Below, piece by piece: positions 5,094 through 44,750 of a stretch of DNA of 55,124 bases. Under the pieces are notes generated by a model that had not been told where the DNA came from, did not search any database, and worked only from the letters and a program-made list of their open reading frames with translations. Numbering within the stretch: the first letter of the stretch is position 1; each line of letters starts with the position of its first letter. The DNA is from a virus. Taxonomy: Duplodnaviria; Caudoviricetes. The stretch spans positions 1-55,124 of IMG/VR virus record IMGVR_UViG_3300021957_000047. One strand, given 5' to 3'. Position numbers and translations under genes: made by a program.

Positions 5094-5121
5094 TTTTTCT
5101 CCCAATGTATCATTCCTCTTT

Positions 5122-8191: not shown

Positions 8192-9225
8192 TAGCATTTT
8201 CTCCAATAACTAAGTTGTAATTTGGCTTGTAAGCCATCATGTGTGTTCTGGTCTATGATCAGATGTAAATCCGCAGATGATATACCAGATAATATCATAT
8301 CGTTGATGTCTTTGTCAAGTATATTCGTGGGCCATATGCAAACTTTCTCCCCTCTCTCAATACACTTTTCCATACGTCTAACAATCTCTAAATTTCTAGG
8401 TTCGTTATCAAAGACAAACGTAGCATTATCTATACTCTCCAGACCAGCACCATTTCCATCTGCACCTGCCATAGCAACAGCGTTATCTAAGAAGAGACTA
8501 TCTATTGGTCCCTCTACTACATAGTAACGCTTCGTAAAGTTCACAGTGTTCAGACCAAAAATTTTGGGCATAGAATCCTCTAGCATAATCGTGATGTAAC
8601 GTATGCTTTCAGAGTCAAATGCTCTTCCTTGATATCCGAATACTGTCCCGTTCTGATCTATGAACGGTAGCACCAATCGAGGCTTGACTTGCTTCTCTGA
8701 CAACTTATCAGGCATCAGCGAATTTGTCCACGTCTCAAATTTTGGAGCGTAATATAATTTATATTGTTGAGATGCTGGGATCCTTCTTTTTTCAACATAT
8801 TTCTTGACTGGATGAGAAAAATTTAGACTAGACACTTTTTTAATTTGGAGTAGAGGACTACCCTTCTTAGTAAACTTTGGTCTACTAGTAGTAAGAGTAT
8901 CAAGAGGACTAACAATATCTTGCTTTGGTGGTTTTGTGCGATAGCCCTTCTCTAGAGCCATGTCTACTACATACTCATTGTGGAGGTTAGGGTCGATTGC
9001 TTTCAGGAAGTTACGCATGCCATGAGAGGCATTGCAATTGTGACAATAGAAGATAGCCGAGTTGTCCTTCTCAAGGATCCAACCACGTGCTTTCATCTTT
9101 GACTTTTGGGAATCACCACATATAGGACAACGAAAGTTCGCTCTGTATGGTGTTTGTGATTTGATTGTGAATCGTTCTAGCCTTGTTGACAAGATACCAG
9201 AATACTTCACGTCTACGAGATTCAT
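8191..9225 (-). CDS. gp61: DNA primase (T4 gp61-like)
   Basis: Zn finger CPICGDS...CHNC; TOPRIM motifs VEGPIDS, FDNE, KDIND. Confidence 0.93.
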   Translation of the reverse strand: MNLVDVKYSGILSTRLERFTIKSQTPYRANFRCPICGDSQKSKMKARGWILEKDNSAIFYCHNCNASHGMRNFLKAIDPNLHNEYVVDMALEKGYRTKPPKQDIVSPLDTLTTSRPKFTKKGSPLLQIKKVSSLNFSHPVKKYVEKRRIPASQQYKLYYAPKFETWTNSLMPDKLSEKQVKPRLVLPFIDQNGTVFGYQGRAFDSESIRYITIMLEDSMPKIFGLNTVNFTKRYYVVEGPIDSLFLDNAVAMAGADGNGAGLESIDNATFVFDNEPRNLEIVRRMEKCIERGEKVCIWPTNILDKDINDMILSGISSADLHLIIDQNTHDGLQAKLQLSYWRKC

Positions 9226-18200: not shown

Positions 18201-18357
18201 GCTTGGGCTTGAGTTCAATCGTATTTTTGACGAGAATTTCATCAGCATCCTCACCCTTCTTTGCCTTCTTTGGCTCGGGCTTCTTTTTCTTCGGTTGCTC
18301 TTTTTCAACTGATTTTTCGTTTTCGGCCTCTACAGCCTTATCTTCTTCTTTATCCAT
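15247..18357 (-). CDS. 1036-aa multidomain late protein: HxGH nucleotidyltransferase followed by many small modules
   Basis: GRMNPITVGH, VVGSDR, MSASKMR in about aa 58-235; later modules separated by acidic LxE linkers. Confidence 0.8.
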   Translation of the reverse strand: MDKEEDKAVEAENEKSVEKEQPKKKKPEPKKAKKGEDADEILVKNTIELKPKLEEAPGKTAVIGWGRMNPITVGHEKLVNKINSVARSEGGDPILFLTHSQDAKKNPLTYDDKYMLATKAFGKIVRKSRSKTIIQAAQELQKKYKNIVLVVGSDRVKTFDDLLNKYNGKDYSFDSIKVVSAGDRDPDADDVTGMSASKMRALAKDGDMESFSKGLPKKLKANAKDVYDMVRGGMKISEELELDEAILSFAQRRQRAMTMRKYKSKIAAARKRMSKRVATKDRLQKKARKKAIAIIRGKVAGDKGKRYSELSTAEKMMIDQKVAKRKAVIDRIAKKLLPKVRRADIARVQGKKVSEEYNLDEHFDLFIEEPTVGQDPDIKDKKGTQPAVYYKGLSKSTKDKRDAHFKKGTKMDDDNPAAYKPAPGDATAETKPSKHTKKFKDMYGEELIPLSKFHSAQKKDGSVKTDGRFKIFRKKNAEAGDTPDKAEIKNKVIDENKAEERLRSQHKSERENMKREHDKELDAVKSRGLRRQIRDLQKEEFDTDEALLAFIEEVTSDIADSVELSEAKGDAGLKAKAEKSGMPLGILRQVYNRGVAAWRTGHRPGTTPQQWGFARVNSFVTKSSGTWGKADADLAAKVRGSSKKEEVESPIDKKKDGSLSYKKTKIITEDDPCWDTHEKRGMKKKGGKLVPNCVPKNEAVSPAQQAAIAIAKKKKEKLDEEFEDMFEGYMSNKIKSVSVNKKMYDHALNTLKSVIDRKKKEAKAKKTGMRHSSEYYAAQIARTYKDVDGKVLHKMLGEEYVFEEGGAGDRGTDKLTKRYKKDTPGESVSESEGPVPKPMSKMTDKQKEDLRHKQNVERERNIRKMKIGQKQTDDDRKRREADRERRLRQYAGKREELELDDMFESVISEREGFKQFNEDVSQKQISDLEKFADRLLDKFGVDVEFTRHFADRMNDDRNNPKISIPELQRFFKKVAKNKAKDIKQLGDSEAVLKDIQADLNLPVVINYDKAKNEFEVVNKTIMRKKDFKTPNKIVKY

Positions 18358-18405
18358 TTTATCCTCTTGGTAGGTTTTCCGTAGACTTACTACAAGTATG
18401 TGTTG

Positions 18406-18413
18406 TATTTATA
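18406..18413 (-). promoter_or_regulatory. T4-type late promoter
   Basis: TATAAATA about 50 nt upstream of the 1036-aa gene. Confidence 0.85.
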
Positions 18414-18415
18414 GA

Positions 18416-19129
18416 TTAGTTATCTTCATCGAATAGCGCCTCAAAGTCGCTGTTGATGATAAATGATCTCAGAAATGTAAAGTTCTGTAGATCGGCATCC
18501 CCATCCCATATTGTCGATTCTCTTATCCAGCCCATAGCAGATATTGGATCACAGATGCTAATAGGTACCTTTGATACTAACTCTGGATAGTTTCTCATAA
18601 AATATCTATTGTCAACAGCTTCTTCTGCGCCTTTCTCATATAACTCTTTGAGTAGCATATGAGCGGTTACATATGTGATAGCATACGCATGGGCTCCTCC
18701 ATGCATTCCAATTGGTATAAGTCGAACAGATGGTCCTGCTCTTTCGTGATCATATGCAGTGATGTTTGGATACTTATAGCCTAAACAGACTATTTCATTA
18801 TCTGGTATATCTATTTCTAGTTTGTGTAACATGACTGCATCGTGTTCTAATATAATAGCACACTCTTTATTCTCTGCTATTCTTTGCCACACTAAGGCGT
18901 GTGTTGCAGAGGCACATGCGGCTTTATCATCCATTTCAGCACGAATGATTATACCTTCTTTTACGTGCGCCCATGCTTGTACTAAATCTAAGTCTTGCAA
19001 TCCTTGTATAATTTGATACTCAATACCTAAGTCGTTACAACTCTTCACTGCGTGTGCGGCATATTCAATTGAAAGAGGATCATTGATTACAATAATATAT
19101 GCTTTCTCGGGTTTCATTTTACACCTCAA
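18416..19129 (-). CDS. glycosyltransferase family 25-like
   Basis: AYIIVI, ACASATHALVWQRI, IILEHDA, GAHAYAI. Confidence 0.75.
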   Translation of the reverse strand: MRCKMKPEKAYIIVINDPLSIEYAAHAVKSCNDLGIEYQIIQGLQDLDLVQAWAHVKEGIIIRAEMDDKAACASATHALVWQRIAENKECAIILEHDAVMLHKLEIDIPDNEIVCLGYKYPNITAYDHERAGPSVRLIPIGMHGGAHAYAITYVTAHMLLKELYEKGAEEAVDNRYFMRNYPELVSKVPISICDPISAMGWIRESTIWDGDADLQNFTFLRSFIINSDFEALFDEDN

Positions 19130-20262
19130 TATCTAGATGGCTTCACTCTCTTGTAAGGTAGTCTTGTGTCTGGATCAGTTGATAGATTCACGACCTCACA
19201 GTTATGCTCTTGAGCAACGTCTTCAAGTCTTCGATAGATATTAGTGAGATAGTTAGGATCACCGTCTCCATACATCTTAGCCATTCTATCTGGATCTGGT
19301 ATACCGTTCTGTTTGATATCATTACCCACACCATAGATAGAAGTAGCTCCGTCATTAGTAGGCGTGTAGTTCATATCACAGCCTAGGAAAGCAATAACAC
19401 TGGGTGCTAGTTCTGACAATGCCCAATATCCTGCATTCAGAGTAATAGAGAAACCACACGCTTTCTGACCGCCATACTTGTTCAGTGCAGGACCATATGC
19501 TTTCACAATTGTTTGATGCTCTTTAGCTACTGCTTGCTCACCTTCAAAATCTGGTGGTCTGACCCAGTAGTCCCAATCACAAACTCTATATCCATTGTTG
19601 ATAGCAACGACAGTCCAACCTTCTTGCTTATATGGATAATCGTTGATCTGCTTAGATGATAATCCGCTTGCTACTAGTAACACTTTACTTTGTTTGATTT
19701 GACCAGTGCGTCTGAAAAACAATCCTCTGCTACGTACAAAGTCACGTTTCATGGTAGATGCTTGACGAATTTGATGTGTACTAGCTTCGTCAAACTCAAA
19801 GCCATACTTACCGAATACTTTGATCCAGTAGTCTTCTTCTTTTAGATTTACGTGATGTGTACCGTTAGTACCAGGAGGTGCGTATGTAATGAATGCATAC
19901 TTACACTTAGCGAATGATTGCATGTAGTTATCGATATACTTTTCTTCTACATGCTCTACAAATTCTGTTGACCAAGCTAGGTCATAGTCTTTCTCTGTGT
20001 ACGTTGTTTCTGCAAAGTCACAGGGAATAATATTGATATCTGGATTTTCTGGAATGACCCGAACATCACCATCAATACCTTCTGCATCAATACCAACTTC
20101 TTTTGCAACCCTAATGTTACCACCAGGACCACATCCTATATCTAGCATTGTGCCTATTTTGAATTTTTGTTTGATTAGTTCTAGCGAACCTTTATCGGTA
20201 TGTGATACCCAATTATGTCCGCCTAGATGTTTTTTATATACTGTAGGATCACCGTATGCCAT
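19126..20262 (-). CDS. class I SAM methyltransferase fused to a DUF115/sialyltransferase-like domain
   Basis: MLDIGCGPG, EFVEHV, HHVN in the N-half; VLLVASGLS, VVAINN, AFLGCDM in the C-half. Confidence 0.7.
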   Translation of the reverse strand: MAYGDPTVYKKHLGGHNWVSHTDKGSLELIKQKFKIGTMLDIGCGPGGNIRVAKEVGIDAEGIDGDVRVIPENPDINIIPCDFAETTYTEKDYDLAWSTEFVEHVEEKYIDNYMQSFAKCKYAFITYAPPGTNGTHHVNLKEEDYWIKVFGKYGFEFDEASTHQIRQASTMKRDFVRSRGLFFRRTGQIKQSKVLLVASGLSSKQINDYPYKQEGWTVVAINNGYRVCDWDYWVRPPDFEGEQAVAKEHQTIVKAYGPALNKYGGQKACGFSITLNAGYWALSELAPSVIAFLGCDMNYTPTNDGATSIYGVGNDIKQNGIPDPDRMAKMYGDGDPNYLTNIYRRLEDVAQEHNCEVVNLSTDPDTRLPYKRVKPSRY

Positions 20263-20292
20263 TTTCTATCCTCATCAATTGTTATAATAAAT

Positions 20293-20316
20293 AAAAAAGG
20301 AGCCGAAGCCCCTTTC
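20293..20316 (-). terminator. intrinsic terminator with cUUCGg loop
   Basis: GGGGC-TTCG-GCTCC-TTTTTT. Confidence 0.85.
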
Positions 20317-20338
20317 AAGTCCTCAAGTGTATTTAGTG

Positions 20339-20524
20339 TTACCTATTTTGTAACTTCGTAATCTCTAACATACACTGTTTCGATTCCTCGTGGTAACCCT
20401 GCCTTGCGAGTTCCGCCGCTGCCCGTGAGTACCCCACTATCTGCGAATAACGATCTACTGATGACCAGAATCCCGACAACGGTGAAAATACATAGTTTGC
20501 TACTAAAGCTGTCATTAGACCCAC
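20339..20524 (-). CDS. small hypothetical protein
   Basis: 61-aa ORF (GYSRAAAELARQGY) directly downstream of the DUF1127 gene. Confidence 0.65.
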   Translation of the reverse strand: MGLMTALVANYVFSPLSGFWSSVDRYSQIVGYSRAAAELARQGYHEESKQCMLEITKLQNR

Positions 20525-20757
20525 CCCCGTAAATTTGGATTATCTGATCTATCTGGAGAATATGCGCCGATTGATACTGAGTGGATTAGTCCTCTGTGCA
20601 AACCGATGTCTGCTAGTTCTTTGTCTGTAAGTTTTGATAGTTGATTATATGTTTCTCTATAAGTCTTGCGGTCTTCGAAGTATCTCACCACTTTATAGAT
20701 GTAAGCTGATAAGAATGAGAAGTCTAGAAATCGTACTGCGGCTAATACGTGTGCCAT
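20515..20757 (-). CDS. DUF1127 (YjiS-like) small protein
   Basis: YRETYNQLSKLTDKELADIGLHRGLI; ends NPNLRGWV. Confidence 0.85.
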   Translation of the reverse strand: MAHVLAAVRFLDFSFLSAYIYKVVRYFEDRKTYRETYNQLSKLTDKELADIGLHRGLIHSVSIGAYSPDRSDNPNLRGWV

Positions 20758-20810
20758 TATGAAACCTTTCGTATGTGATAAATGTATTATGTCAATCTTG
20801 TTGACGCAAA

Positions 20811-20818
20811 TATTTATA
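20811..20818 (-). promoter_or_regulatory. T4-type late promoter
   Basis: TATAAATA upstream of the DUF1127 gene. Confidence 0.75.
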
Positions 20819-20901
20819 CAAGAAAAGTTGATTTTTACTCTAAATTACGATGACATTTCCGAATACCCGTAATGCTGGTATTGCATCTGTGACAACCTGA
20901 C

Positions 20902-22131
20902 TTACTTCTGCCAGCCTTTGATTATTTCTGGAGAAAAGTTAGCATTACTAAACTGTAGTCTGTCTACTAGTTTGACTGCATTTTTACCCATACGATCAAT
21001 AGCGACAAAGCCTTCTTGCTCTGTTACTTTGAATCCATCTGCGGTCTTTAGAAACGTACCGATGCTCTTAGTCTTATCTAGTTTACGTATTAGCATAAGC
21101 TTGGCTTCAACGATTAGATTATAGAGTTCGAACAATGCCACAATCTGAGACTTAGGTACGTTAGCGAAGTACGACAGAATGTCTTTGCGCTTCTCTACTC
21201 TACCAGCTTTACTCTTCGCAGTCTTTAGCTTGTCGATCTCTTTTTGGTAGTAGTCATGAATATAGTCCATGAGTTCTGTGACAAACCTATTAGGGTTTTT
21301 GATTTGCTCACCCTGTCTTACTTTAGAGTTGATGAATGTCTTCACTCTCAACAATCTATCGGGATGATTCGTAATACCGTCAAACGTACCACGCTTGATA
21401 GTATTGAATTTCTTACCAGCGGCAGATAATACCTTAGTGATATCTGCGGTCTCTTTCTTGGTCATGCTTGCATTACCAGAGACATCTTTATACACTGCGT
21501 CTACTGACCAGACTTGTTTGCTTTCTTTGAGTTTGCTCGCAATCTCTTCTCCAAAACTTGCTGACATTTCCTCAAAGCTATTTCCTCTGTAAGTAGTGTG
21601 CCATACCACACCGATGCTGGATCGCATGATTCTCTTAGCAAGGTCGCTTTTCGTTGGTATCGCATAAACAATGGTGTTAGGATGGAAAGTAATATACGAT
21701 GTTCCATCAATAGTTTCTTTTCTAATATCTTCTTTCGCATATAGGAAATCACCTTGGACAACTCCTTCAATTCCTAGAGATGGAAAGTGCTCCAACGCTA
21801 GTTTCAATTTTGTATTCAAATCACCAGATGTGTCTGCATCTATGTCTGCATCACTCTTATACACTTTGGGATTCTTGTTGAAGATACCTTTCTTGGCAAC
21901 AAAAAACTTGCCGTCAGAGGGATCTTTACCTGCAAAGATAGCGGGAGCTCCGTCCCATTTGACAGTTAGATTGACTGGTGCCTTTGCATCACCTGCCATC
22001 ATGTCACGCAATGAACGTAAGTAGTTTATACTTTGTCTTGCGCCAGTTACACCAGCATTGAGGACATTATCCTCTAAATGCTCCATGTGTACATTCTTTT
22101 CTTCAGTAAGATAGTTCGTTAGTCTCATCAT
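20902..22131 (-). CDS. covalent nucleotidyltransferase / ATP-dependent ligase-like protein (DUF6267-like)
   Basis: Motif I VKWDG, motif III-like QGDFL, motif IV EGFV, motif V VKL. Confidence 0.65.
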   Translation of the reverse strand: MMRLTNYLTEEKNVHMEHLEDNVLNAGVTGARQSINYLRSLRDMMAGDAKAPVNLTVKWDGAPAIFAGKDPSDGKFFVAKKGIFNKNPKVYKSDADIDADTSGDLNTKLKLALEHFPSLGIEGVVQGDFLYAKEDIRKETIDGTSYITFHPNTIVYAIPTKSDLAKRIMRSSIGVVWHTTYRGNSFEEMSASFGEEIASKLKESKQVWSVDAVYKDVSGNASMTKKETADITKVLSAAGKKFNTIKRGTFDGITNHPDRLLRVKTFINSKVRQGEQIKNPNRFVTELMDYIHDYYQKEIDKLKTAKSKAGRVEKRKDILSYFANVPKSQIVALFELYNLIVEAKLMLIRKLDKTKSIGTFLKTADGFKVTEQEGFVAIDRMGKNAVKLVDRLQFSNANFSPEIIKGWQK

Positions 22132-28276: not shown

Positions 28277-28540
28277 TCAACTATTATAGATTTCGAACAG
28301 CTTGGCTTCGAATTCTTCGATCTTCGCTGTTCTGTTTGGCCAGAGAATGTACTCTTTCTCTGGGTTCTTTTTCAGATTAGCCAGCAACGGTGCAATAGCA
28401 TTGTACAACTTGTCTAATGTTTCTTGCGTTGCTTCTGCCGTGCTTGATGCGGCGGCTACCTTTTCTTCGACAGCCTTGACTGCCTGTAATTCGTCTTCGT
28501 CTACGGCTGTAAAGCCGAAATCAAATATATCATCGCTCAT
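28277..28540 (-). CDS. hypothetical protein
   Basis: FDFGFTAVDE...NPEKEYILWPNR; ATGA overlap with gp43. Confidence 0.75.
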   Translation of the reverse strand: MSDDIFDFGFTAVDEDELQAVKAVEEKVAAASSTAEATQETLDKLYNAIAPLLANLKKNPEKEYILWPNRTAKIEEFEAKLFEIYNS

Positions 28541-31050
28541 GAGAAAAAATCCTCCAATGTGTTAGTCTCTTCTAAGTTCCAGTTGATAGCATCACTGACC
28601 AGCTTTAGTGGCTCTTTGAATGTCTTATCGAACTGAGTTTGATAATCTATGTATGTGTCTAGATCGAACTCTTTAGGCAAGAACTGAGGAAACGAGATGA
28701 CGTTCTCTCTCAGTGGATTAGGAGTTTTGAGATAGCAGAACTTTACTTTGCTACCATCTTTGATACCCTCCATTACTCTATCAAGTCCAGTCTCTTTCAT
28801 TTTGTGGTTGAACATAATCGCACCACGCACATGTATAGGTGTGCCTTTCTTGTACATAGTGGTCGTATCTTTCCACTTTGTTAGATCGGATACGCCACGT
28901 GGAAACGAGACGCTTTCGGCAGGTAGGCTAGTAAACTCTTCATAGAAGTCAGACACGAACTTCTGTAACTCACTCTCACTACCACTCAAAATAATCTGGT
29001 ACGCTTGCTTGAACTTATCACGCACTACTTGAGGTGTCGATGACTTGACTGCCTCAATGCCCATGATCTTTAGTTTAGGCACTGCGTACTGCACACCTTC
29101 ATTATTATGTACGTTCAGAATGTACCGCTTCTTAGCAGTCCAAACACCACGATCAGCAATAGCTTCACGTGCCATCTCCATACGATTTTCGTATGCATTC
29201 ATTCGGTCAAACAACACAGCATAAGAACGCTCTAGAACTGGCTCAAACTTTTCTTGGCAGGCTTTGTCAATAAACTTCACTGGATCAGAAGGGTTTACCA
29301 TCTTGACCAGTGGTGCCATGTCAACATAAAGAGAGTCAGTATCGATAGCAATTACATAATCTTCTTCATCGGTCTTGAGTAGTTTGTTCATGTATTTGTT
29401 CATGGCTTTCTCAGCCCATCGAACAGATAGTTGACCAGATAATGTAATGCCTTCAGCAATGGACATTTCGAAGTAACGGAAGTATTGATTGCCGAGTGCG
29501 CCATAAAGCGAGTTGAGCAAAATCTTGACCGCTTGCTGTGTGTTGTTTAGTCTATTTATCTCTCGCTTCAAGTCGTGGGAGCCATCAGACTGAGATTCTT
29601 GCTGTAACTCAAGCATCTTGTTCTTAGTCTCACGGCGTTCATTGTACAGATCAATAATGATCTCAGGCATGAAACCACGTTTGTCTTTACGATATGTAGA
29701 TCCATTTGCGGCGATAGCGACACCGTGATTCAACTGTGCATCGGATACAGGAGTATCATTTGCGAGATAAGTATCAACACCCATGGGATACATATCAGCC
29801 GGGGTGCGTATCAACGTCTCGGGCGACATGTTGTACTGTACAATTAGGTTAGGGTACAGACTGTTCAAGTCAAACGAGGTAATCCATTCACTCATGCCAA
29901 CACGTGGGTCTTTCACATAGCCACCAGGATATGGATTCTTGTGCTTATCTTTGTTTGGTGGTACAGCAATCTTACGTTCAGACAAGTAGCGATAGATGAT
30001 AGAATCCCATATGCCCGTAGTACCGAACACATCTGGGTAATTCACACCACCTTTGTATGCGATTACGAGAGCCAAGTCCATAAGACCAGTCTCTTTGTCA
30101 ATGCGGTCAACTAGATCAACGTCTCGTATGTTATAGTCGATGAACTTCTGGTGATTCTCTTTGTATAGATTGTGTAGAGTACCGAACTCTTCATAAGATA
30201 TCTTCTTCTCACCGAGAACTGTATGAGCAATATGGTTGAGTGCATAACTCTCTTGATTACCATACGTGTAGCCAAACTTCTGAAACAGATCGTAGTAGTC
30301 AACTTGGGCAATGCCGTAAAGTTCATATGCATCCATCGACTTACCCTTGATGCCGATCTGACGGTGCTTGTATATCTTCCATGGTGAATAGAGTTTGGTA
30401 GTCTCTTCGCCACATACTTTGAGTGTACGATTGATCATGTACGGGATATCGAACAAGCGAATGTTCCAACCAGTGATGATGTCAGGCGTGTTATTCTGCC
30501 AGAAGACCAGAAACTTTTCGATCAGGTCTTTCTCATTGTCACAGTGACGATACTGTATCAACTCAATACTATCTAGTTCGCTCTTGGTAGAGTCATAATG
30601 ACCTAGACCCCATACATGATAGACTTTGCTTTTGCTGTCTTTGTATGCGATAGAGATGATAGGATGATCAGCTTGCTCTGGGTGAGGAAAGCCATCGTCT
30701 GATGCAACCTCGATATCGATATTACCAACACAGATATGTCGCAACTTATAATCGATCTCACCAGGGAACGCCTTCTCAATGAACTGTGCCACGAAGTTGT
30801 TGTTGCCGTGAACTTTGAAGTTGTCTACGTCTGCGTAACTCTTAGAGAATTCTTGCGCTTCAGACATACTATCGAACTGCATAGGTTCAACCGCACTACC
30901 GTCTAGTGCTTTCCACTCAGACGATTTGTTAGATGGGACGAATAGTGTTGGCTTGAATGGCACTCTCTTGTGAATGCGTTGACCGTCGGCTGTGTAGCCA
31001 CGGAATAGCATCTTGTTGCCATATCTATGTACGGAAGTGTAAAAACTCAT
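28537..31050 (-). CDS. gp43: family B DNA polymerase
   Basis: DIE exonuclease motif, DLNSLYP, KILLNSLYG, DTDS, KKRY; C-terminal LEDFF clamp motif. Confidence 0.97.
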   Translation of the reverse strand: MSFYTSVHRYGNKMLFRGYTADGQRIHKRVPFKPTLFVPSNKSSEWKALDGSAVEPMQFDSMSEAQEFSKSYADVDNFKVHGNNNFVAQFIEKAFPGEIDYKLRHICVGNIDIEVASDDGFPHPEQADHPIISIAYKDSKSKVYHVWGLGHYDSTKSELDSIELIQYRHCDNEKDLIEKFLVFWQNNTPDIITGWNIRLFDIPYMINRTLKVCGEETTKLYSPWKIYKHRQIGIKGKSMDAYELYGIAQVDYYDLFQKFGYTYGNQESYALNHIAHTVLGEKKISYEEFGTLHNLYKENHQKFIDYNIRDVDLVDRIDKETGLMDLALVIAYKGGVNYPDVFGTTGIWDSIIYRYLSERKIAVPPNKDKHKNPYPGGYVKDPRVGMSEWITSFDLNSLYPNLIVQYNMSPETLIRTPADMYPMGVDTYLANDTPVSDAQLNHGVAIAANGSTYRKDKRGFMPEIIIDLYNERRETKNKMLELQQESQSDGSHDLKREINRLNNTQQAVKILLNSLYGALGNQYFRYFEMSIAEGITLSGQLSVRWAEKAMNKYMNKLLKTDEEDYVIAIDTDSLYVDMAPLVKMVNPSDPVKFIDKACQEKFEPVLERSYAVLFDRMNAYENRMEMAREAIADRGVWTAKKRYILNVHNNEGVQYAVPKLKIMGIEAVKSSTPQVVRDKFKQAYQIILSGSESELQKFVSDFYEEFTSLPAESVSFPRGVSDLTKWKDTTTMYKKGTPIHVRGAIMFNHKMKETGLDRVMEGIKDGSKVKFCYLKTPNPLRENVISFPQFLPKEFDLDTYIDYQTQFDKTFKEPLKLVSDAINWNLEETNTLEDFFS

Positions 31051-37043: not shown

Positions 37044-37694
37044 CTATTTACTGTTGATTGCAATCCAGTATTGTACCTTGTCAGATTTGAAATGTGCCAT
37101 ACCTTTAGAAGACAAGGCGACTTCATAGTCGTATGGCATTAGCTTGAGATTGTCAACTTTGATTGTCATAGTGAAATGACCAAAGTCTCCGTTCTCACCA
37201 ACAACAACGTCATAATTGTCAGATGTTGGATTTTTGCTGTCAACGGCAGCCAATGAAAGAGTGCTACCTTCGCCTTTGAAAGCGATCTCAGGTAGTCCTA
37301 GTACACCAGCGGCACGAATGACACTATCGATATCATCCCAAGTCACTTTGACAACTGCTTCAGGATCTGGAACAGTAATGTCTTTGTTCGGTGGAACGAC
37401 AATCATATTTTCAGCAGTGTAAGTATAGTTCAAAGAACTGCGCTTACCTTTGATGTTGAATCGACCATCGCCAAATGCAACATCTGCATCTTCAAATAAA
37501 CCAAGCGTGGCAAGGAATCGACCTAAGTCGTATACACCAGCTTGACTATCAAAATTCTCACTCACAGTTGCGGCAGCCATAACTGTCTTCTGTGGAGAGA
37601 TTGTTCTAATCATATCACCAGGTCTGAACAACAGACTTGGGTTGATCTGAGAGAAGTTTTTCAAAACGCTCATTGTTTCGTCACTAAATTTCAT
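37044..37694 (-). CDS. gp45: sliding clamp
   Basis: LKNFSQINPS, VYDLGRFL, NLKLMP, YWIA. Confidence 0.93.
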   Translation of the reverse strand: MKFSDETMSVLKNFSQINPSLLFRPGDMIRTISPQKTVMAAATVSENFDSQAGVYDLGRFLATLGLFEDADVAFGDGRFNIKGKRSSLNYTYTAENMIVVPPNKDITVPDPEAVVKVTWDDIDSVIRAAGVLGLPEIAFKGEGSTLSLAAVDSKNPTSDNYDVVVGENGDFGHFTMTIKVDNLKLMPYDYEVALSSKGMAHFKSDKVQYWIAINSK

Positions 37695-37697
37695 AAT

Positions 37698-38627
37698 CTA
37701 TTTCCTCTTCTTTCTACGGTTAGTAGGTTTATTTATACTCGATTTTGCCGTCTTTGTCAAGTCTTTTTCATTATTATCATAATGTTTTTTACTTGACTCT
37801 TTACTCGCTGTAGGTGATGCATCGATCATAGCGATATGACCTAAGCTACCTCCAAAAGTATAAGACCCCACATGTTTGATCTGCATCCATGGACACATCC
37901 ATATGCTTAGACCAATCTTACGAGCATAGTTACTAAACATGTAGTCTTCTGACAAATACCTTTTTGACACTGGTTCAATCATCGTATCAAAGAATGCTGT
38001 GATCTCATGCGAACCATCAAAGTTCTCAGTTCGTACATGATCAGGCTTGTAGCGTAACTCAGGATACTTATCAGCATACTTGATAAACGCTTTCTTATCT
38101 ACGCACATGAAACCTGTGCCGCCCTCTTTGATTTCGGTTACCTCTTTTATCTGAAACGACTTCATGCCGTCTATAGTATTGAAGACGTAATCTCCACCAA
38201 AATCTTCTAGATCGAATGGGTTCTTGTCACCGTATCCAAGATCAGATGCTTTCTTGATCTTCTCCCAAGCTATTGTCTTTTTAGGATACGGTCCACACAC
38301 AACGTCTTTACCTGCGTCACTATCTGTAAGAAACAGTAGTGTCAAGGCATCACGATAGTCGAACCCAATGTCACTATCAATAAAGAGTAAGTGGGTAGCA
38401 TCAGAACGTAGAAACTCATCTACGCAATAATTTCTAGCCCTAGTAATTAGAGACTCATTGAACATGTAGTAATGTCTAAGACTAATCCCATGCTTTGTGC
38501 ATATAGACGTTAGATCGTTTACTGACTTAGTGTATAAGCCTGCACATTGTCCACCGTACATAGGCGTTGCAACAAATAGCCGCTTGCCTCTTAGTACTTC
38601 AAGATCAAGATTCATTATATTCCTCAC
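37698..38627 (-). CDS. GT-A fold glycosyltransferase-like protein
   Basis: VATPMYGG, SLITRARN, LLFIDSDI (DxD), GTGFM, LSEDY. Confidence 0.75.
   Translation of the reverse strand: MRNIMNLDLEVLRGKRLFVATPMYGGQCAGLYTKSVNDLTSICTKHGISLRHYYMFNESLITRARNYCVDEFLRSDATHLLFIDSDIGFDYRDALTLLFLTDSDAGKDVVCGPYPKKTIAWEKIKKASDLGYGDKNPFDLEDFGGDYVFNTIDGMKSFQIKEVTEIKEGGTGFMCVDKKAFIKYADKYPELRYKPDHVRTENFDGSHEITAFFDTMIEPVSKRYLSEDYMFSNYARKIGLSIWMCPWMQIKHVGSYTFGGSLGHIAMIDASPTASKESSKKHYDNNEKDLTKTAKSSINKPTNRRKKRK
37730..37760 (-). promoter_or_regulatory. overlapping sigma70 and late promoters for gp45
   Basis: TTGACA-17-TATAAATA inside the end of the upstream gene. Confidence 0.65.
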
Positions 38628-39132
38628 GCTTTCTTTTGAATTCTTCAGCGAGATTCAATTGCTCTTGAATCCACTTTGCAGATTGTTTAGATGTAAATGC
38701 GCCACCATCTACGCTAGGCATACGATCATCTGTGCCGATGCCTCTAATAACAGATGAAGATAACATCAACGCACCAGCCATAATCATACAGACGTGATGC
38801 ATACCAGATCCATCTGAGCCATTGTCATAATCACGACCACGCTCAAAATCATCGATGTGTCTCTTTAGACTATCAATCATCTGTTGCCATGGAAGACCTT
38901 TCTCCCAGTTACGATCAGCGTACTTCTGCGCTCCATATTCTAAGGCTGCCGCACCGGCGGCTAGCCCCTCTAGAGGTAATTGTTTCATGTAAGGCACACC
39001 AAGTGCTTCTCGCTCTGCACCACTCTCTGATGCCGCAAACTTACCAATACTCTCTAGGTCTATCTTAGGACCGCATTTACTTTCTTTCACATTATGCAAT
39101 TGTGCTTGTAAGCCACTTGCTCCAATTTTCAT
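38605..39132 (-). CDS. dATP/dGTP diphosphohydrolase-domain protein (DUF5664-like)
   Basis: YGAQKYADRNWEKG, SLKRH, D..SGMHH. Confidence 0.75.
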   Translation of the reverse strand: MKIGASGLQAQLHNVKESKCGPKIDLESIGKFAASESGAEREALGVPYMKQLPLEGLAAGAAALEYGAQKYADRNWEKGLPWQQMIDSLKRHIDDFERGRDYDNGSDGSGMHHVCMIMAGALMLSSSVIRGIGTDDRMPSVDGGAFTSKQSAKWIQEQLNLAEEFKRKREEYNES

Positions 39133-39135
39133 TAT

Positions 39136-39780
39136 CTACCTCTCAGTTTGGTCATGTCCATTTTCAGCACGATGGATCATTTGTAGTCTAAGAATATCTG
39201 CCGCTACATCATGGGTGCTATCATGTGCAACGAAAGTTTTATGCCAGTAATCTTCATCTGCTACTGGGATGAACCCATTGTGCTTGATGCCGAAGTTGAA
39301 TTTGGCATCGATGAAGGTACGTATATCACGAACTTTGTAGTACTTTAGATACTCGCTAAACAAGTGTCCGTTACCACTCTCGTTCATAATTCTCCATATG
39401 ATAATGGGATCAAAGGTGTTACTTCTTGACCACCAGTAATCCACATTTCTCTGTTCTCTTAGATATGCTAGTATAATATCACAAAAGGGCTGTACTGTCA
39501 AGTCATTTTCTGTTGGCTTGAGTTTATCTCTTGCGGCTTTAGGCAATCTCTGCCAGAACTTGAGGTCTTCTTGTTCGAAGCCACATTTCCAGTTCTCGAC
39601 TTGATCTCTTACATCTAGCTTGACCGTTTGAATGTTGGACGCTAACTCCTCAAACGAGTAAGGGTTCTCTACAAACCTATCCCACTCAAATGCGTAGTAC
39701 GCCATATCAACTATTGGACAGATGTGAACGTTGGCACCAACTGTCTCTAAATCAAATATAAAATCTTTTTTCATTCTCAC
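39136..39780 (-). CDS. DEDDh 3'-5' exonuclease (DexA-like)
   Basis: FDLET, FDP, RDIRT, HDSTHDVAAD. Confidence 0.8.
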   Translation of the reverse strand: MRMKKDFIFDLETVGANVHICPIVDMAYYAFEWDRFVENPYSFEELASNIQTVKLDVRDQVENWKCGFEQEDLKFWQRLPKAARDKLKPTENDLTVQPFCDIILAYLREQRNVDYWWSRSNTFDPIIIWRIMNESGNGHLFSEYLKYYKVRDIRTFIDAKFNFGIKHNGFIPVADEDYWHKTFVAHDSTHDVAADILRLQMIHRAENGHDQTER

Positions 39781-41303
39781 TCTTGAAAGTTCGTTTCAAG
39801 CCTCATACCATATTCATTGTTATCAGATGATATTATAACATCTTTCTTCAACTTTAGCAAGTTCTTTTTGAAAGGAGTGTAATCTACAAAGTGGTGCCAT
39901 CTACCATATCTCCAGACAAGTCTTGCTACGTCTGGGTGCATGTCAACTAGCATCTGTGACTTATTCACAGTACCCTCTGTGTTGTATCCAGTCTCTTTGA
40001 ACCCCTCACTTTCTACATTCTCTGCGTGATAAAACTCAGCAGTATTACCACCTGCAACTGTTTGAGTAGCCGCTTTGCCCTGTAAGAAAGCATTGAACTG
40101 TACACATACATCACCGTCTTTCATTACTCGTAGGCAGATGTCAGTATCTTCGTTATATCTACCACGCCATCTATGCTTACAATCATTCCTGATAAGAAGA
40201 CTAGAATATATACGGGTGTTGGCAACGTAAGGAGGATACTTCTGATCTGGCGCAATAAAGAATCTATACTGTGGACCAGCGATGTAAACATTGTCATATC
40301 TTCCTACAAAATCTTCCATGGCTCTAAAGCCAGCTCCGCTCTCAAAGCGAATGCGTTTGTTCTCGTTTAGGCGATAGAAGTCAGAGATGTTATCATCAAA
40401 CACCCAGTGACTTGTAGCCCCTAAACTTATAGAGTGGTCCCATGCCCAGTTTCTTGCCCTACCTGGACCATCACCATGATTTGAAAAAGGGGCAACTAGG
40501 AGCGTCACGTAATCACGTATGCTGAAGTTGTCTAACGCCTTATCATAGTCATCAAAGTCTTGTGGTTCTATCACGATGTAATGCGGAATCTTCATGCGGG
40601 CAAGTGACCTTGACGTATGCATGGATTCGTGACGACCCTTTGACACGATGTACATGGGAAACTGTGGGAGTGTCTGCGACTCATCTACCCAACGTAGTAG
40701 TCTATTAGCAGTTATCTCCAATTTGGGATGCCAGATAGACTTAGATTTTTCACTAAGATGCTTCTGACCAATTCTTTTTGCGAAGTCTTTGTAATGCTCT
40801 TCTGTTCTGAACATGACGTGAACTGTGCGATATGGTGGACAGTCTTCTTGTATGAACTCTGGCATACCTTGCCAATGTTCTGACCACTTAGCGTTCTTAT
40901 CGCCATCTTCTGCAAGTTCGACATCAAGAGTAGTATCGACTTTCGCTTTTCTGTTTGCCCTCTTAGGCTTTACCAGTTGTTTGTCAACTTCAATATTAGT
41001 TGCTTGCTCTTCTGGGAATAATGACTCAGCAGGATCGTTCAGAGGAAAGAATACTGCTTTATCGTTTGAGTGTATGATCTGTCCTATCTTAGAACAGAAA
41101 TCAGCAACGTCATCCAAACTACGGAAGTGTACGTATAATACTTTATACACGTCATCGTACTGGCTCTTAGCTTTAGTCTGATCATACAGAACTGGCTGTA
41201 CAGGCTCATCCATAAACCTATCTAAACTAATACCGTACTCATCCTTATCACGCTTGTCTGCGTCTAAGAAGTTATCGTAATTTGCACTTTCTTTTACACT
41301 CAT
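39777..41303 (-). CDS. GREB1/TAGT-like GT-A glycosyltransferase with duplicated N-terminal module
   Basis: YIVSKGR, GPGRARN, WVFDDNI, RYNEDTDICLR, GGNT, HHFVDY. Confidence 0.7.
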   Translation of the reverse strand: MSVKESANYDNFLDADKRDKDEYGISLDRFMDEPVQPVLYDQTKAKSQYDDVYKVLYVHFRSLDDVADFCSKIGQIIHSNDKAVFFPLNDPAESLFPEEQATNIEVDKQLVKPKRANRKAKVDTTLDVELAEDGDKNAKWSEHWQGMPEFIQEDCPPYRTVHVMFRTEEHYKDFAKRIGQKHLSEKSKSIWHPKLEITANRLLRWVDESQTLPQFPMYIVSKGRHESMHTSRSLARMKIPHYIVIEPQDFDDYDKALDNFSIRDYVTLLVAPFSNHGDGPGRARNWAWDHSISLGATSHWVFDDNISDFYRLNENKRIRFESGAGFRAMEDFVGRYDNVYIAGPQYRFFIAPDQKYPPYVANTRIYSSLLIRNDCKHRWRGRYNEDTDICLRVMKDGDVCVQFNAFLQGKAATQTVAGGNTAEFYHAENVESEGFKETGYNTEGTVNKSQMLVDMHPDVARLVWRYGRWHHFVDYTPFKKNLLKLKKDVIISSDNNEYGMRLETNFQE

Positions 41304-42397
41304 AAAAACCTCGTTAAATCTGAAAAAGATTTATTGTGGTCATTATAACGTATATCGATCACCTTGTCAAGTCTTATTTTCCAATTTGATAGACTATGCT
41401 TCTCTTTTGTCATCTCCGCTATCTCTCTACGAAATGGTGACATAGCCTTAGTGTGCTTCAATATAGCAGACTCAAAGTCGCTACTGCTACACTTACGTCT
41501 GATCATATAGGTGTGTCTTGGATCAGCGGCGATGCCTTCGCTTGAGTGAGTGATAGTATCGTCACACATTAGCAAAGTTGGTACACCACAGCCTAATGCT
41601 TCCATTGCTGTGATACCCCAGGACTCTTTAGGCCAAGTTGAACAGAAACTAAGAGACTTAGCAATGTTCTTCATTACGTCATCATGAGCCAAACCACGCA
41701 TAGTAAAGCGTGGATCTTTCCAGTGTTGATTGTTCAGCACATAGTCGTTGACTGTGCTACTCTTATATACACCATCGTTAGTCATCACTAGGCTGTTTAG
41801 CTTAGATCGCTCTAACTTACTATGTACGAGAAATGGTGCCTTCTCGTTGTCACATCTGCCTACTGTAGAGACATCGTAACATATATCTTCATTGTTCCAC
41901 GTGTTCTCAAACGGAGTATCTTTTGGCAGATATGAAGGGTTGATATATCCCTTGATCTCACCGAAGTCTACGTTACGTATTCTCAATGCCATTTCTTTGT
42001 GGTACTCATATTGTTTAGGACTCACAAAGTAGATATGGCATCCACTCTCGTTCAAATCTCTCAATATTGTGCCGAGTTCTACCATACGTATATCACGCAC
42101 AAGTGGTTCATGCATAATACAAATTAGTGGTACGTTGAAAGACATCATCATATTTCCCCACCAAGGATTGTTGAACAAGATCATATCTGGATCATGCTCC
42201 GCAATAGCGTCAGTGATTACTTTACGTGTACGTCTCTTCTCTTTATCTTCTTTAGTGACTGCAACTGGTATGATGCCATCAATATTATTCTCTAAGTCCT
42301 GGCAGAACTTCTCAATACCACCAGTGATCACTTTACCGTTAGTTTCAGCGTTCTCTACTAATTCGAAATGTGTGGAGTATGGTAAGAGTATCTTCAT
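41300..42397 (-). CDS. GT-B fold glycosyltransferase (GT4-like)
   Basis: GGIEKF, VGR...K, ESWGITAMEALGCGVP (E-x7-E motif). Confidence 0.8.
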   Translation of the reverse strand: MKILLPYSTHFELVENAETNGKVITGGIEKFCQDLENNIDGIIPVAVTKEDKEKRRTRKVITDAIAEHDPDMILFNNPWWGNMMMSFNVPLICIMHEPLVRDIRMVELGTILRDLNESGCHIYFVSPKQYEYHKEMALRIRNVDFGEIKGYINPSYLPKDTPFENTWNNEDICYDVSTVGRCDNEKAPFLVHSKLERSKLNSLVMTNDGVYKSSTVNDYVLNNQHWKDPRFTMRGLAHDDVMKNIAKSLSFCSTWPKESWGITAMEALGCGVPTLLMCDDTITHSSEGIAADPRHTYMIRRKCSSSDFESAILKHTKAMSPFRREIAEMTKEKHSLSNWKIRLDKVIDIRYNDHNKSFSDLTRFL

Positions 42398-42843
42398 TTT
42401 TTCTTGTTCACAAAATCTGACTCGCCCCATACTACGTTTGTACGTAGACTGCTAGACGAAAATCTATGGTCTCTATTGTTGAAGTAAAGTTCTATGTTTC
42501 GCTTATCACAAACATCTCTACCAGTGAATTCTTTGTCTTTATATTCTGGACCTAAGATACGAACATCAATGAGATATAGTTCGAGGATATCTTTCAAGTC
42601 GTTTTCAGTGGCATACACAATAACTTCATCAACGTACTTCACAGCCGACAGTTGTGTATAACGCTCAACAATGGATTGAATGGGAGAGTTCTTCTCTGGT
42701 CGATCCAGAGCAGGATCGATTTGAAGACCACATATCAAGTGATCACATTGCTCTTTTGCTTCACGTAGCATCATAACATGTCCTGCGTGTAACAGGTCAA
42801 ACGTACTACATGTAAATCCTACACGCTTCGATTTCTTCATCAT
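42394..42843 (-). CDS. cytidylyltransferase (TagD/glycerol-3-phosphate CT-like)
   Basis: TFDLLHAGH, YVDEV, FSSSSLR. Confidence 0.88.
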   Translation of the reverse strand: MMKKSKRVGFTCSTFDLLHAGHVMMLREAKEQCDHLICGLQIDPALDRPEKNSPIQSIVERYTQLSAVKYVDEVIVYATENDLKDILELYLIDVRILGPEYKDKEFTGRDVCDKRNIELYFNNRDHRFSSSSLRTNVVWGESDFVNKKK

Positions 42844-42853
42844 ATAATTCACC

Positions 42854-43030
42854 TTATGAGTTAGCGGCAATCTTCCTTTCGATGGATACCATTTCATCTT
42901 TCATTCTCAATTTCTCTTTCTTGAGAGGTGTCACATACTTAGACTGACACTTCTCTGCTTCAAGAACCTCTATGCGAGTGTGAAGTTCGTGATGCTTTCG
43001 TTTCAGTGATGATAGTCTGTCTTCTAACAT
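42854..43030 (-). CDS. DUF465/YdcH-like small coiled-coil protein
   Basis: Hand translation MLEDRLSSLKRKHHELHTRIE...LKKEKLRMKDEM; AGGAG SD. Confidence 0.75.
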   Translation of the reverse strand: MLEDRLSSLKRKHHELHTRIEVLEAEKCQSKYVTPLKKEKLRMKDEMVSIERKIAANS

Positions 43031-43040
43031 TAGTCATCTC

Positions 43041-44750
43041 CTATGAAGCCATTCTACTAAAGTTCTTCACCTTTTCGAATCTGATTACGTTGTCAAACTT
43101 CTCATAGAGTTGATCGCCTTTGTGACTTATTATAAAGATATTTGAGTCGGCTGTCAACTCATTTATTATTTTTAGGAACTCATCTGTACCTGCGTTGTCG
43201 AGTGATGAGTCCATGATCTCATCCATCAATAGCAAATTGGTAGACACTGAGTTACGCAATTTAGATACAGCCCGCCACGTGAACAGAAGGGCTAGATCAA
43301 TTCTTAGTTTCTCACCCTCAGAGAAAGAGGAGTAAGAGAATACGTCACGGAATCTGGACTTGATAGTTTCGTTGAATCCCTCATCCAGTTCAAACTGAAC
43401 GAAGAAGTCCATCGCCGCTAGGTATTTATTGATTAGTTTATTCATGACTGGAACGTACTGCTTGATGATACGAGTCTTGATACCACCATCTTTCAGCATA
43501 GACGATACAATGCCCATCATCTCTTTGTCATCGAACAACTGGTTCTGTCTATTGTGATACGTCAACAGATCGCCCTGTAACTTCTCAATAGCAGATGTGT
43601 CGATTGCTTCTACAGACTTCTCTGCTTCTGTTAGTTCATTCTTGATGGACTTACATACACCCATAGCAACACGGTGTGTGGCATTGTGTTCGCTCATCTG
43701 CATGTTCTTATCAGATATAACGGACTCTACCTCATCAATCTCAGTAAGTCGTTCATTGACCTTAGTGAATCTACCATCAAGTTCAACTGTCGCTTCTTCG
43801 ATCTTGTTGATCTTATCGCTAGAGCCTTGTATGGTCTCCTCTTTGAAATGATGGTCGATACCTTGCTTACAAGTGGGACAGTCATCGTTGTGCTGGTAGA
43901 AAGCAATATCTTTACGTAGCTTCTTCAACTTATCTGATAACTGACCCTCAACTTTTTCTAGTTCTTGTAACTTCTTCTTGACTGTAGCCTTGTCAGCAAT
44001 AGTCTCACCCATCTCTTTGATCTCTTCTATAAGAGTATCTACTGCCGATTGCTCGGCTTCAATGAGTTCGATTTGTTCTTTCAACTTGTCTTTGAGTTTA
44101 GTTACCTCTGTCTCTTTCAGTTGTCGAATAGATTCATTATGCTCTGTAGCACTTTCAATCTTATTAGATAGTAGATCGATCTGGTACTTTATCTCTTGAA
44201 TCTCTTCTTTGTTCTCTGAGACACGTTCTTTGAGGAGCGTGTTCATCACAGTAAAGATTTGAATGTCAAGCAGGTCTTCTATGACCTCACGTCGGTCTTT
44301 AGCAGATAGTTGCATAAATGGTACAAACGTACTAGAACCCAGTACAACTACTTGACCAAAAGACTTGTAGTTCATCTTTAGAATAGTCTCTTCTAGGTAC
44401 GCTTGGTAGTCACGCACAGATGCATCTTGGTTGAGTAGTTGATCGTTCTTCCATATCTCAAAGATGTTTGGCTTGATACCACGCTTGATAGTATACTTGT
44501 TGCCTGAGATGTTGAAGTCCAGTTCTACCATCAGTTCTTTCTGATTGATAGAGTTCAATAGCTGTGGCTTTTTGATATTACGGAATGCTTTGCCATACAG
44601 AGCAAAGGCGATAGCGTCTAACATAGTAGACTTACCAGCACCGTTGTCGCCAACAATTAGAGTAGACTTACTCTTATCTAAGATAATTTCTGTCCACGAA
44701 TTGCCTGTTGATAATATATTTTTATATCTTACCGCCTTGAATAAGATCAT
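43041..44750 (-). CDS. gp46: recombination nuclease ATPase subunit (Rad50/SbcC-like)
   Basis: GDNGAGKS, CPTC hook, FSEGE, LLMDE, ISH. Confidence 0.95.
   Translation of the reverse strand: MILFKAVRYKNILSTGNSWTEIILDKSKSTLIVGDNGAGKSTMLDAIAFALYGKAFRNIKKPQLLNSINQKELMVELDFNISGNKYTIKRGIKPNIFEIWKNDQLLNQDASVRDYQAYLEETILKMNYKSFGQVVVLGSSTFVPFMQLSAKDRREVIEDLLDIQIFTVMNTLLKERVSENKEEIQEIKYQIDLLSNKIESATEHNESIRQLKETEVTKLKDKLKEQIELIEAEQSAVDTLIEEIKEMGETIADKATVKKKLQELEKVEGQLSDKLKKLRKDIAFYQHNDDCPTCKQGIDHHFKEETIQGSSDKINKIEEATVELDGRFTKVNERLTEIDEVESVISDKNMQMSEHNATHRVAMGVCKSIKNELTEAEKSVEAIDTSAIEKLQGDLLTYHNRQNQLFDDKEMMGIVSSMLKDGGIKTRIIKQYVPVMNKLINKYLAAMDFFVQFELDEGFNETIKSRFRDVFSYSSFSEGEKLRIDLALLFTWRAVSKLRNSVSTNLLLMDEIMDSSLDNAGTDEFLKIINELTADSNIFIISHKGDQLYEKFDNVIRFEKVKNFSRMAS

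Follow-up and report, generated by a model that had tools for sequence, protein, structure and literature searches.

What do the six genes packed between gp46 and gp45 of a T4-like phage do, and is phage DNA their target? The locus lies in the IMG/VR record IMGVR_UViG_3300021957_000047, which was analyzed over its whole length (55,124 bases; estimated completeness 31%) and is called the window here. The record is a fragment of an uncultured marine T4-like myovirus with nearly all genes on the minus strand. Positions 37698-42897 are filled by six co-directional minus-strand open reading frames (ORFs), flanked by gp46 (43041-44750) and gp45 (37044-37694), and the junctions between the six are overlaps (ATGA/GTGA; ~11 nt between the MazZ-like and GT-A genes) or 3-nt gaps. 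An original prediction, made from the letters alone, had read six tightly coupled genes as a DNA hypermodification island, and the ORF map and the profile and fold matches agree with the families that it described. Here, we propose that the locus holds a clamp-tailed, early-expressed DNA glycosylation cassette of two transferases, GT-B and TAGT, perhaps fed by the adjacent nucleotidyltransferase, and we give this reading a probability of about 0.55. The cassette would be expressed early from host-type promoters. The C-terminal tail of GT-B appears to copy the clamp-binding tail of the DNA polymerase, and the enzyme probably rides gp45 behind the fork. GT-B would put the first sugar on phage DNA, TAGT would extend that sugar or work beside GT-B, and the decorated DNA would be shielded from host nucleases. 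The features on which the argument turns are as follows.

42394-42843 (longer ORF to 42897), minus strand: nucleotidyltransferase with an HxGH motif, like TagD, ethanolamine-phosphate cytidylyltransferase (ECT) and RfaE domain II
41300-42397 (longer ORF to 42430), minus strand: GT4-like GT-B glycosyltransferase, with Glycos_transf_1 matched in its family and the tail SDLTRFL
39777-41303, minus strand: TAGT-family GT-A protein of 508 aa (PF20691)
37044-37694, minus strand: gp45 sliding clamp, onto which the transferase tail is proposed to dock
28537-31050, minus strand: gp43 DNA polymerase, with the C-terminal tail NTLEDFFS, against which the transferase tails are compared

The C terminus of the window GT-B reads ...SFSDLTRFL, that of gp43 ...NTLEDFFS, and that of gp55 ...GLEKFIDEDKKEEKE. 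The likeness of SDLTRFL to the gp43 and gp55 tails had been pointed out in the original prediction, which quoted the tails correctly. Full-length relatives of TAGT are encoded by 507 IMG/VR stretches (window TAGT as the query), and the loci of relatives discussed below are the best 80 of these. For the terminal motif [STNDA]-L-x-[DENRGQ]-F-[FLIM], 1,434 ORFs were scanned, taken from the window, from the 80 loci, and from 60 kb of the relative G001; the motif was found in 55 of them: 30 of the GT-B family, 22 of a short TAGT paralogue (cluster c10), one gp43, and two others. All 30 GT-B-family ORFs have the tail (ending [STN]-L-x-x-F-[FLM]; variants include SDLTRFL, SDLTEFFT, NDLMGFFNE, and NSLVDFFV), as do all 21 short-paralogue ORFs at the stricter cut (variants include NSLEEFI, ASLTDFL, and NTLEDFMS). 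It is retained in both partner families down to 41% identity, and nine of the 10 gp43 ORFs end in a close variant of it. The two commonest partners of TAGT are of unrelated folds and both carry a polymerase-like tail, so that the clamp-tail idea extends to two transferase families that alternate upstream of TAGT. A general mechanism for linking DNA modification with the clamp is suggested by the tail.

Binding of the GT-B tail to gp45 was also modeled. The predicted complex of three gp45 chains with GT-B residues 320-365 scored 0.55, compared with 0.17 for the best of three controls (contact agreement of at least 47% and partner predicted local distance difference test (pLDDT) values of at least 34 in these runs). 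Of 157 solved complexes, 116 attained the mark used for a pass, as did two of 215 mismatched pairs; among these passes, scores of 0.60 or less came from only 18 of the 157 solved complexes and from both mismatches. The pass may reflect memory, because a homologous clamp-peptide complex has been solved (1B8H, listed with 1B77 among the gp45 matches). The model thus lends weak support to clamp binding. In T4, the alpha-glucosyltransferase (alpha-GT) co-purifies with gp45 in a pull-down, according to the accessible text of PMC13216743, which cites Sommer et al. 2004.

Which genes travel with TAGT was analyzed in the 34 of the 80 loci that hold both gp46 and gp45 (two of them are the window's own phage); their 286 island ORFs fell into 45 clusters. 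Directly upstream of TAGT stands GT-B in 16 loci, a 285-aa TAGT paralogue in 10, an RXYLT1_C-like gene in four, a kinase-nucleotidyltransferase in two, and an FkbM methylase and a plain nucleotidyltransferase in one each. TAGT itself was the selection criterion; of the other genes, that for the exonuclease occurs in 22 loci, that for the MazZ-like protein in 18, those for GT-B and the nucleotidyltransferase in 16 and 14, respectively, and the phrog_1574 GT-A gene in seven; a PMM-like HAD gene is added in some relatives' islands. By these co-occurrences, the coherent unit appears to be the partner transferase plus TAGT. The interval of other relatives also takes genes for hsp20, S21, CobS/CobT-like, HNH, and peptide deformylase proteins, as would be expected if the six genes had been inserted into a variable region as unrelated genes without a common role, their tail likeness being due to chance or structure. 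We regard this as very improbable: a transferase precedes TAGT in 31 of the 34 loci (the others have the two kinase-nucleotidyltransferases and the nucleotidyltransferase), the tail is kept in 30/30 and 21/21 ORFs, and the genes are joined by start/stop overlaps.

Outside this interval, the same TAGT gene (57-68% identity) is found in other lineages just before gp43, after gp41 (gp41/uvsX), or beside gp32, and it stands amid polymerase, recombinase, and helicase genes in Paraglaciecola virus GD1 and Vibrio phage 1.124.O. A second scan was anchored on gp45 rather than on TAGT and covered 20 loci. Three sister contigs (L108, L109, and L112; gp46 77% and gp45 74% identity) retain the nucleotidyltransferase, exonuclease, MazZ-like, and GT-A genes, and genes for four other proteins take the place of GT-B and TAGT: one Asn-synthase-like, one a C5 cytosine DNA methylase (2.1e-53), one a second methyltransferase, and one of 462 aa that ends in an HNH-like stretch. 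In other relatives, the interval holds genes for a Dam-type methylase and an ApaLI-like nuclease. Together with the methylase cassette, these genes mark the interval as a hot spot for DNA-modification genes, and, judged from gene content, the GT-B and TAGT cassette appears to sit in this hot spot between gp46 and dexA.

Several genes of the relatives' islands deserve mention in their own right. The replacement genes of L108 (3266-7929; also in L109 and L112) form, together with the nucleotidyltransferase gene, an overlapping operon, in which the Asn-synthase-like member is a PP-loop protein and the second methyltransferase depends on S-adenosylmethionine (SAM); this operon may be a different route to DNA hypermodification. 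Islands of the TAGT type and of the methylase type alike encode, after the cassette and before the exonuclease, a protein of 450-473 aa (cluster c18; L026 8484-9905 and L108 6541-7929; 31% identity, 1e-62). With its "DGG.RKR" stretch and, near the C terminus, an HNH-like "GHI.AH..GG.T", this protein may be akin to DUF262/HNH (GmrSD-like) nucleases; its HNH match in Pfam is faint at best. In three other lineages (L074, L076, and L066), a staphylococcal-nuclease-like gene lies upstream of or near TAGT.

The TAGT protein matches PF20691 over the full model (positions 1-205 of 205 at aa 215-419; 7.5e-40, 137.5 bits against a cutoff of 27.5). Two N-terminal beta-alpha-beta repeats (~aa 54-86 and 159-192) precede the TAGT domain, and a conserved C-terminal region follows it; the core is nearly invariant across 30 sequences. 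The core of the AlphaFold2 (AF2) model is GT-A-like, with LH3, ColGalT1, and SpsA among the Foldseek matches (best E 2.4e-4; mean pLDDT only 64.7), and a Foldseek search with the full model gave generic GT-A and nucleotidyltransferase folds only, with nothing specific. A tblastn search of cultured phages returned 23 matching records, all below 60% identity and none of them a T-even phage. An activity is stated for only one member of the family, the T2/T6 enzyme, by which a second glucose is attached to glucosyl-hydroxymethylcytosine (glucosyl-hmC) DNA, according to the accessible parts of PMC13216743 and PMC13390438; in the former, TAGT homologues with neither alpha-GT nor beta-glucosyltransferase (beta-GT) are counted in 288 of 753 phage genomes and their function is called undefined.

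Two further parts of TAGT stand out. The region ahead of the TAGT domain (aa 50-212) is an internal duplication of a beta-alpha-beta module of ~40 residues. An atlas look-up of aa 45-212 gave a best score of 0.84, under the meaningful level. A profile of the repeat region matched 2,711 representative clusters (1,066 at 1e-10), many of whose short matches may be fragments. Of 150 listed matches, 23 were run against Pfam: seven have the TAGT domain, 13 are without any match, and three match only weakly to other families (LAGLIDADG, zinc ribbon, and DUF3102). The C terminus (39777-39830, minus strand) has the pattern N-x-Y-G-M-x-L-x-x-[ND]-F in 30 sequences, with N496, Y498, and M500 invariant, and it may be a second docking motif.

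For the window GT-B alone, the Glycos_transf_1 score (18.3 bits) is under the cutoff of 26.4, but the model is matched by 11 of 11 family members (best 3.5e-8) and Glyco_trans_1_4 by 10 of 11. An invariant E258...E266 pair lies in the ESWGITAMEALGCGVP block, an E-x7-E arrangement that we take to be the GT4 motif. Sequence matches in the PDB are weak and are to GT4 enzymes, the best being Gtf1. The protein of 41300-42397 is thus assigned, on its family profiles, as a probable GT4-like GT-B enzyme.

The nucleotidyltransferase matches PF01467 (CTP_transf_like; 3.9e-13) and, at 51 bits where 27.7 suffices, TIGR00125. It is under the equivalog cutoffs for RfaE domain II (TIGR02199; 70.5 against 181.5) and TagD (TIGR01518; 54.1 against 165.4), and its best PDB matches are ECT (3ELB, 1.3e-18) followed by TagD. 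The predicted end coordinate of 42843 fits the likely true start (M19; the relatives have 136-153 aa), and its stop overlaps the GT-B start in ATGA. The enzyme presumably makes an activated donor, either a nucleoside diphosphate (NDP)-sugar or a CDP-alcohol. RfaE-II (heptose-1-phosphate), ECT, and TagD score similarly, so that the CDP-activated polyol of the original prediction is not singled out. In 11 of the 14 flanked loci with the nucleotidyltransferase, GT-B is also present; it occurs with other partners too. Homologues without an evident partner gene are found in 132 cultured phage records, and the neighborhoods of the nearest ones (Vibrio phage Va1 and Acinetobacter phage Ab1-TPeters) held no partner genes. 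A small upstream ORF, orf58, travels with the nucleotidyltransferase: it occurs in 13 of the 34 flanked loci, every one of which also has the nucleotidyltransferase. A PHROG search with orf58 gave no match, and its "...LKKEKLRMKDE..." stretch is presumably typical of DUF465.

42854-43030, minus strand: 58-aa coiled-coil ORF (orf58, cluster c6)

Early expression of the cassette is suggested by promoters of the host type. Two perfect sigma-70 sites stand ahead of the cassette and of TAGT, respectively.

43129-43157, minus strand: perfect sigma-70 consensus promoter (TTGACA-17-TATAAT, 12/12) in the gp46 3' end, upstream of orf58 and the nucleotidyltransferase
41342-41370, minus strand: another perfect sigma-70 consensus promoter, directly ahead of the start of TAGT

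In the whole window, 17 sites with at least 11 of 12 consensus bases were found on the minus strand and one on the plus strand, against an expectation of 0.9 and a maximum of four in 40 first-order Markov simulations. A late-type motif, TATAAATA, stands just before gp45. Further near-perfect sites lie on the minus strand, for example, at 46451-46423, 45025-44997, 39501-39473, 36731-36703, 32535-32506, and 9288-9260; the array has mostly 17-nt spacers, and its sites are often within the 3' end of the preceding gene.

The remaining three genes of the locus are the following.

39136-39780, minus strand: DEDDh-type exodeoxyribonuclease, DexA-like (Rv2179c-like; PDB 8KEL)
38605-39132, minus strand: protein with a MazZ-like NTP diphosphohydrolase domain (PF18909, dGTP_diPhyd_N)
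37698-38627, minus strand: GT-A-fold transferase (phrog_1574; AF2 fold) with invariant D84 and D86 (DSD), adjoining gp45

The original prediction had joined all six genes in one pathway, in which a CDP-activated polyol or sugar is built stepwise onto a base at the fork, the MazZ-like protein excludes a canonical dNTP, and the exonuclease assists. The tight coupling of the genes, the row of three transferases and one activating enzyme, and the naming of PF18909 for dATP/dGTP diphosphohydrolase are in keeping with it. We nevertheless consider a single pathway very improbable. The exonuclease, MazZ-like, and GT-A genes occur with at least four different cassette types, including the methyltransferase cassette. 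The exonuclease and MazZ-like genes accompany every kind of partner transferase and therefore follow the phage lineage, and in phiM12 the GT-A homologue is the only one of the six genes between gp46 and gp45. Strong promoters lie inside the island. The exonuclease (Rv2179c-like, 2.1e-6) matches an ordinary phage enzyme, the 227-aa "Exodeoxyribonuclease" of PDB 8KEL/8KEN (1.1e-12 over aa 6-204), which we take to be T4 DexA, presumably of that length, and its place as a pathway member is not borne out. The predicted exclusion of a canonical nucleotide is likewise unsupported: ThyX (151 bits, equivalog), dUTPase, and dCMP deaminase of the window are canonical, and no PurZ/DatZ-type partner was found by Pfam among the ORFs of the window, a record 31% complete. 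These three genes are therefore judged, on their distribution, to be separate lineage genes and not steps of the cassette.

The MazZ-like assignment rests on PF18909 (5.3e-22, 78.1 bits against 27); a PDB sequence search with this protein gave nothing meaningful. In other relatives, a DUF3310 protein occupies its position; that the two are the same gene was considered and rejected, as a pairwise comparison found no likeness. The GT-A protein of 37698-38627 has no Pfam match, and its AF2 model (pLDDT 85.8, pTM 0.84) has a GT-A fold. The top PDB structure match is STIV A197 (2C0N, 8.3e-8), 158 PDB chains match at E of 0.001 or less, those listed being GT-A enzymes, and the top BFVD match is "Glyco_tranf_GTA_type" (5e-25). 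D84 and D86 are invariant in 37 sequences. A PDB sequence search with the phrog_1574 profile found nothing, and this independent, very abundant family numbers 8,000 or more clusters (90% identity), none of them named.

Several results weigh against a DNA glycosylation cassette. The invariant TAGT residues, R224, D303-D304-N305 (DDN), and E385-D386-T387 (EDT), differ from the published R...DDD...EDY/F. The GT-B protein showed no detectable likeness to any protein of cultured phages in tblastn, the gp45-tail complex prediction is weak, and the nucleotidyltransferase also occurs without any glycosyltransferase partner, as in the methyltransferase cassette. Above all, an acceptor-making enzyme was not found: the scanned ORFs of the window include no ThyA-like hydroxymethylase, 5-hydroxycytosine (5hoC) synthase, TET/JBP, or C5 methylase, consistent with the original prediction, which had listed no hydroxymethylase, TET, or PurZ. 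ThyA-family matches (342-350 bits) were obtained in only two of the 50 relatives' contigs searched (from the 80 loci), and Tet_JBP was matched in none of the five longest relatives (38-60% complete), where the control was likewise silent in every genome, which makes this negative a weak one. Four of five cultured TAGT phages have a single ThyA locus (in two pieces in POP12), with no extra ThyA copy over the Pfam cutoff; the canonical D169/N177 was read in Aeh1 and Paraglaciecola GD1. The fifth, Vibrio 1.124.O (record marked partial), has no ThyA. Absence of a base-activating enzyme is not proven by these searches because all metagenomic contigs are fragments.

The active site of one of the two relatives' ThyA proteins, that of G001, was read and is canonical (D169/N177); with 350 bits and an adjoining dihydrofolate reductase (DHFR) gene, it was rejected as a hydroxymethylase. 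A further 45 kb of G001 yielded no candidate base-modifying enzyme. The window has ThyX (7514-8206) where G001 has the canonical ThyA and DHFR (L086 1498-2876), near which lies a serine hydroxymethyltransferase gene. On DNA modification in the phiM12 group and in Aeh1, nothing relevant appeared among the literature matches listed.

These searches bear on a reading in which the transferases act off DNA, on a phage or host protein (possibly at the replisome) or on a host envelope glycan, with the nucleotidyltransferase supplying CDP-glycerol, ADP-heptose, or similar. No base-activating enzyme was found in the window, the 50 relatives' contigs, or the five cultured TAGT phages. The closest solved folds of both GT-A proteins modify proteins or polymers (LH3, ColGalT1, GalNAc-Ts, TarP, and STIV A197), the best PDB sequence match of GT-B is Gtf1, and a second glyco-type cluster lies in the window at 15247-20262. 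In addition, ~65% of GT contigs have no neighboring base-modification enzyme and are less obviously DNA-directed, according to the accessible text of Pyle et al. (bioRxiv 10.1101/2023.12.21.572611). Such off-DNA action is possible but, in our view, unlikely, since the gp43-like tail is kept on two unrelated partner transferases, TAGT is found in replication modules across five different gene contexts, a DNA methylase cassette can take over the slot, and the known activity of the TAGT family is on DNA. The original view that the transferases are DNA-directed and replisome-coupled is probably right, given the tails on two families and the exchange with the C5 DNA methyltransferase cassette; we infer that DNA is the acceptor.

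To our knowledge, phage DNA glycosylation is known only on 5-hydroxymethylcytosine (5hmC), 5-hydroxymethyluracil, and 5hoC, each from a ThyA-like or TET-like enzyme. A bolder version of the DNA reading is that the pair glycosylates DNA without a pre-made hydroxymethyl or hydroxyl pyrimidine, at a canonical base, the backbone, or a site provided by an enzyme family that has no known link to DNA modification so far. We consider this quite doubtful; if true, a very abundant group of marine T4-like phages would have a new DNA chemistry. More generally, a TAGT-centered cassette is common in marine viral contigs (the 507 IMG/VR stretches) with wiring toward the replisome, while an acceptor-making enzyme was not found. 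Should DNA be the target, the acceptor itself or the way in which it is made would be new.

The proposed cassette can be compared with known systems. The T2/T6 beta-glucosyl-HMC-alpha-glucosyltransferase resembles the window TAGT in its Pfam family (full-length domain match), its probable GT-A fold, and its place as a phage gene among replication genes; as described in the accessible parts of PMC13216743 and PMC13390438, the T6 TAGT extends a sugar already placed on DNA by another glycosyltransferase. Unlike the T2/T6 setting, the window lacks alpha-GT, beta-GT, and dCMP hydroxymethylase, and its TAGT has an extra N-terminal two-repeat region of ~210 aa. No association of TAGT with TET/JBP, a hydroxymethyl-pyrimidine synthase, or alpha- or beta-GT was seen among the ORFs of this 31% complete record. 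The T4 alpha-GT is, like the window enzyme, a GT-B-fold glycosyltransferase of a T4-like phage; it acts on DNA and binds the clamp (PMC13216743, as far as its text is accessible). The window enzyme differs in being GT4-like, and its predicted contact is the gp43-like C-terminal tail.

Pyle et al. (bioRxiv 10.1101/2023.12.21.572611), as far as the accessible text goes, mined ~25,000 GT contigs, ~65% of them without a neighboring 5mYOX or ThyS, and reported GT contigs next to gp45/clamp genes. In their contig 53, a HAD/kinase (APH) enzyme, a cytidylyltransferase, and a GT-B make heptosyl-5hmC DNA. Their 5mYOX/C5-MT/ThyS clusters resemble the present locus in having GT-A and GT-B DNA transferases with their own donor-making enzymes. 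Compared by description only, they differ in that the window has no 5mYOX, C5-MT, or ThyS-type enzyme and has the motifs DDN and EDT, and the clamp-type tail and the T4-like gp46-gp45 slot do not appear in the accessible description of the clusters. The arabinosyl-5-hydroxycytosine clusters of RB69 and DLP3, described in the accessible text of PMC13326640, are akin to the proposed cassette in their phage-made NDP-sugar, several GT-B enzymes on DNA, and T4-like genome; they depend on a ThyA-like 5hodCMP synthase (D169N) together with a dCTPase and a kinase, and searches of the window yielded none of these. Both solitary TAGTs and GT contigs close to gp45 have thus been published before, and the solitary TAGTs are flagged as an open question in the accessible parts of PMC13216743 and Pyle et al. 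(bioRxiv 10.1101/2023.12.21.572611). We found the present cassette described in no paper, although no search aimed at it was made.

Judged by the gp23 capsid protein, the cultured phages nearest to the window are those of the Sinorhizobium phiM12 group (~70% identity), along with Stenotrophomonas DLP6 and the Melnitz and Mosig phages; the identity is 67-70% to the phiM12 group, Caulobacter phage Cr30, and Stenotrophomonas phage DLP6. A megablast search of the island against cultured phages gave zero matches, and megablast turned up no cultured near relative. The phiM12 group, Cr30, and DLP6 have a phrog_1574 homologue (50-56% identity) beside or near gp45, and by tblastn they are without TAGT and GT-B. 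Pfam and PHROGs matches identify in the window gp20, gp21-23, UvsY, UvsW, gp55, gp47, and gp46; gp45, gp44, gp62, RegA, ligase, gp43, UvsX, gp41, and primase; dUTPase, ThyX, NrdA/B, and dCMP deaminase; and Hsp20, an alternative oxidase, and a partial N6/N4 DNA methylase.

The second glyco-type cluster (15247-22131, minus strand) encodes a 1036-aa protein with an N-terminal CTP_transf_like part and DUF5824 (phrog_3041 "cytidyltransferase", 4e-100), a GT25-like protein, a SAM methyltransferase, and DUF6267; in PHROG 455, DUF6267 and the cytidylyltransferase part are joined in one profile. The relative G001 (L097 1-13000) carries curli secretion genes (CsgG, CsgF, and curlin repeats), a CHASE2-adenylate/guanylate cyclase, a heme oxygenase, and a bilin reductase-like gene. 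Finally, at 3888-5706 of the window (minus strand), a glutaredoxin-NrdB fusion is followed by the alternative oxidase (PF01786, 7e-65), which lies between nrdB and nrdA.

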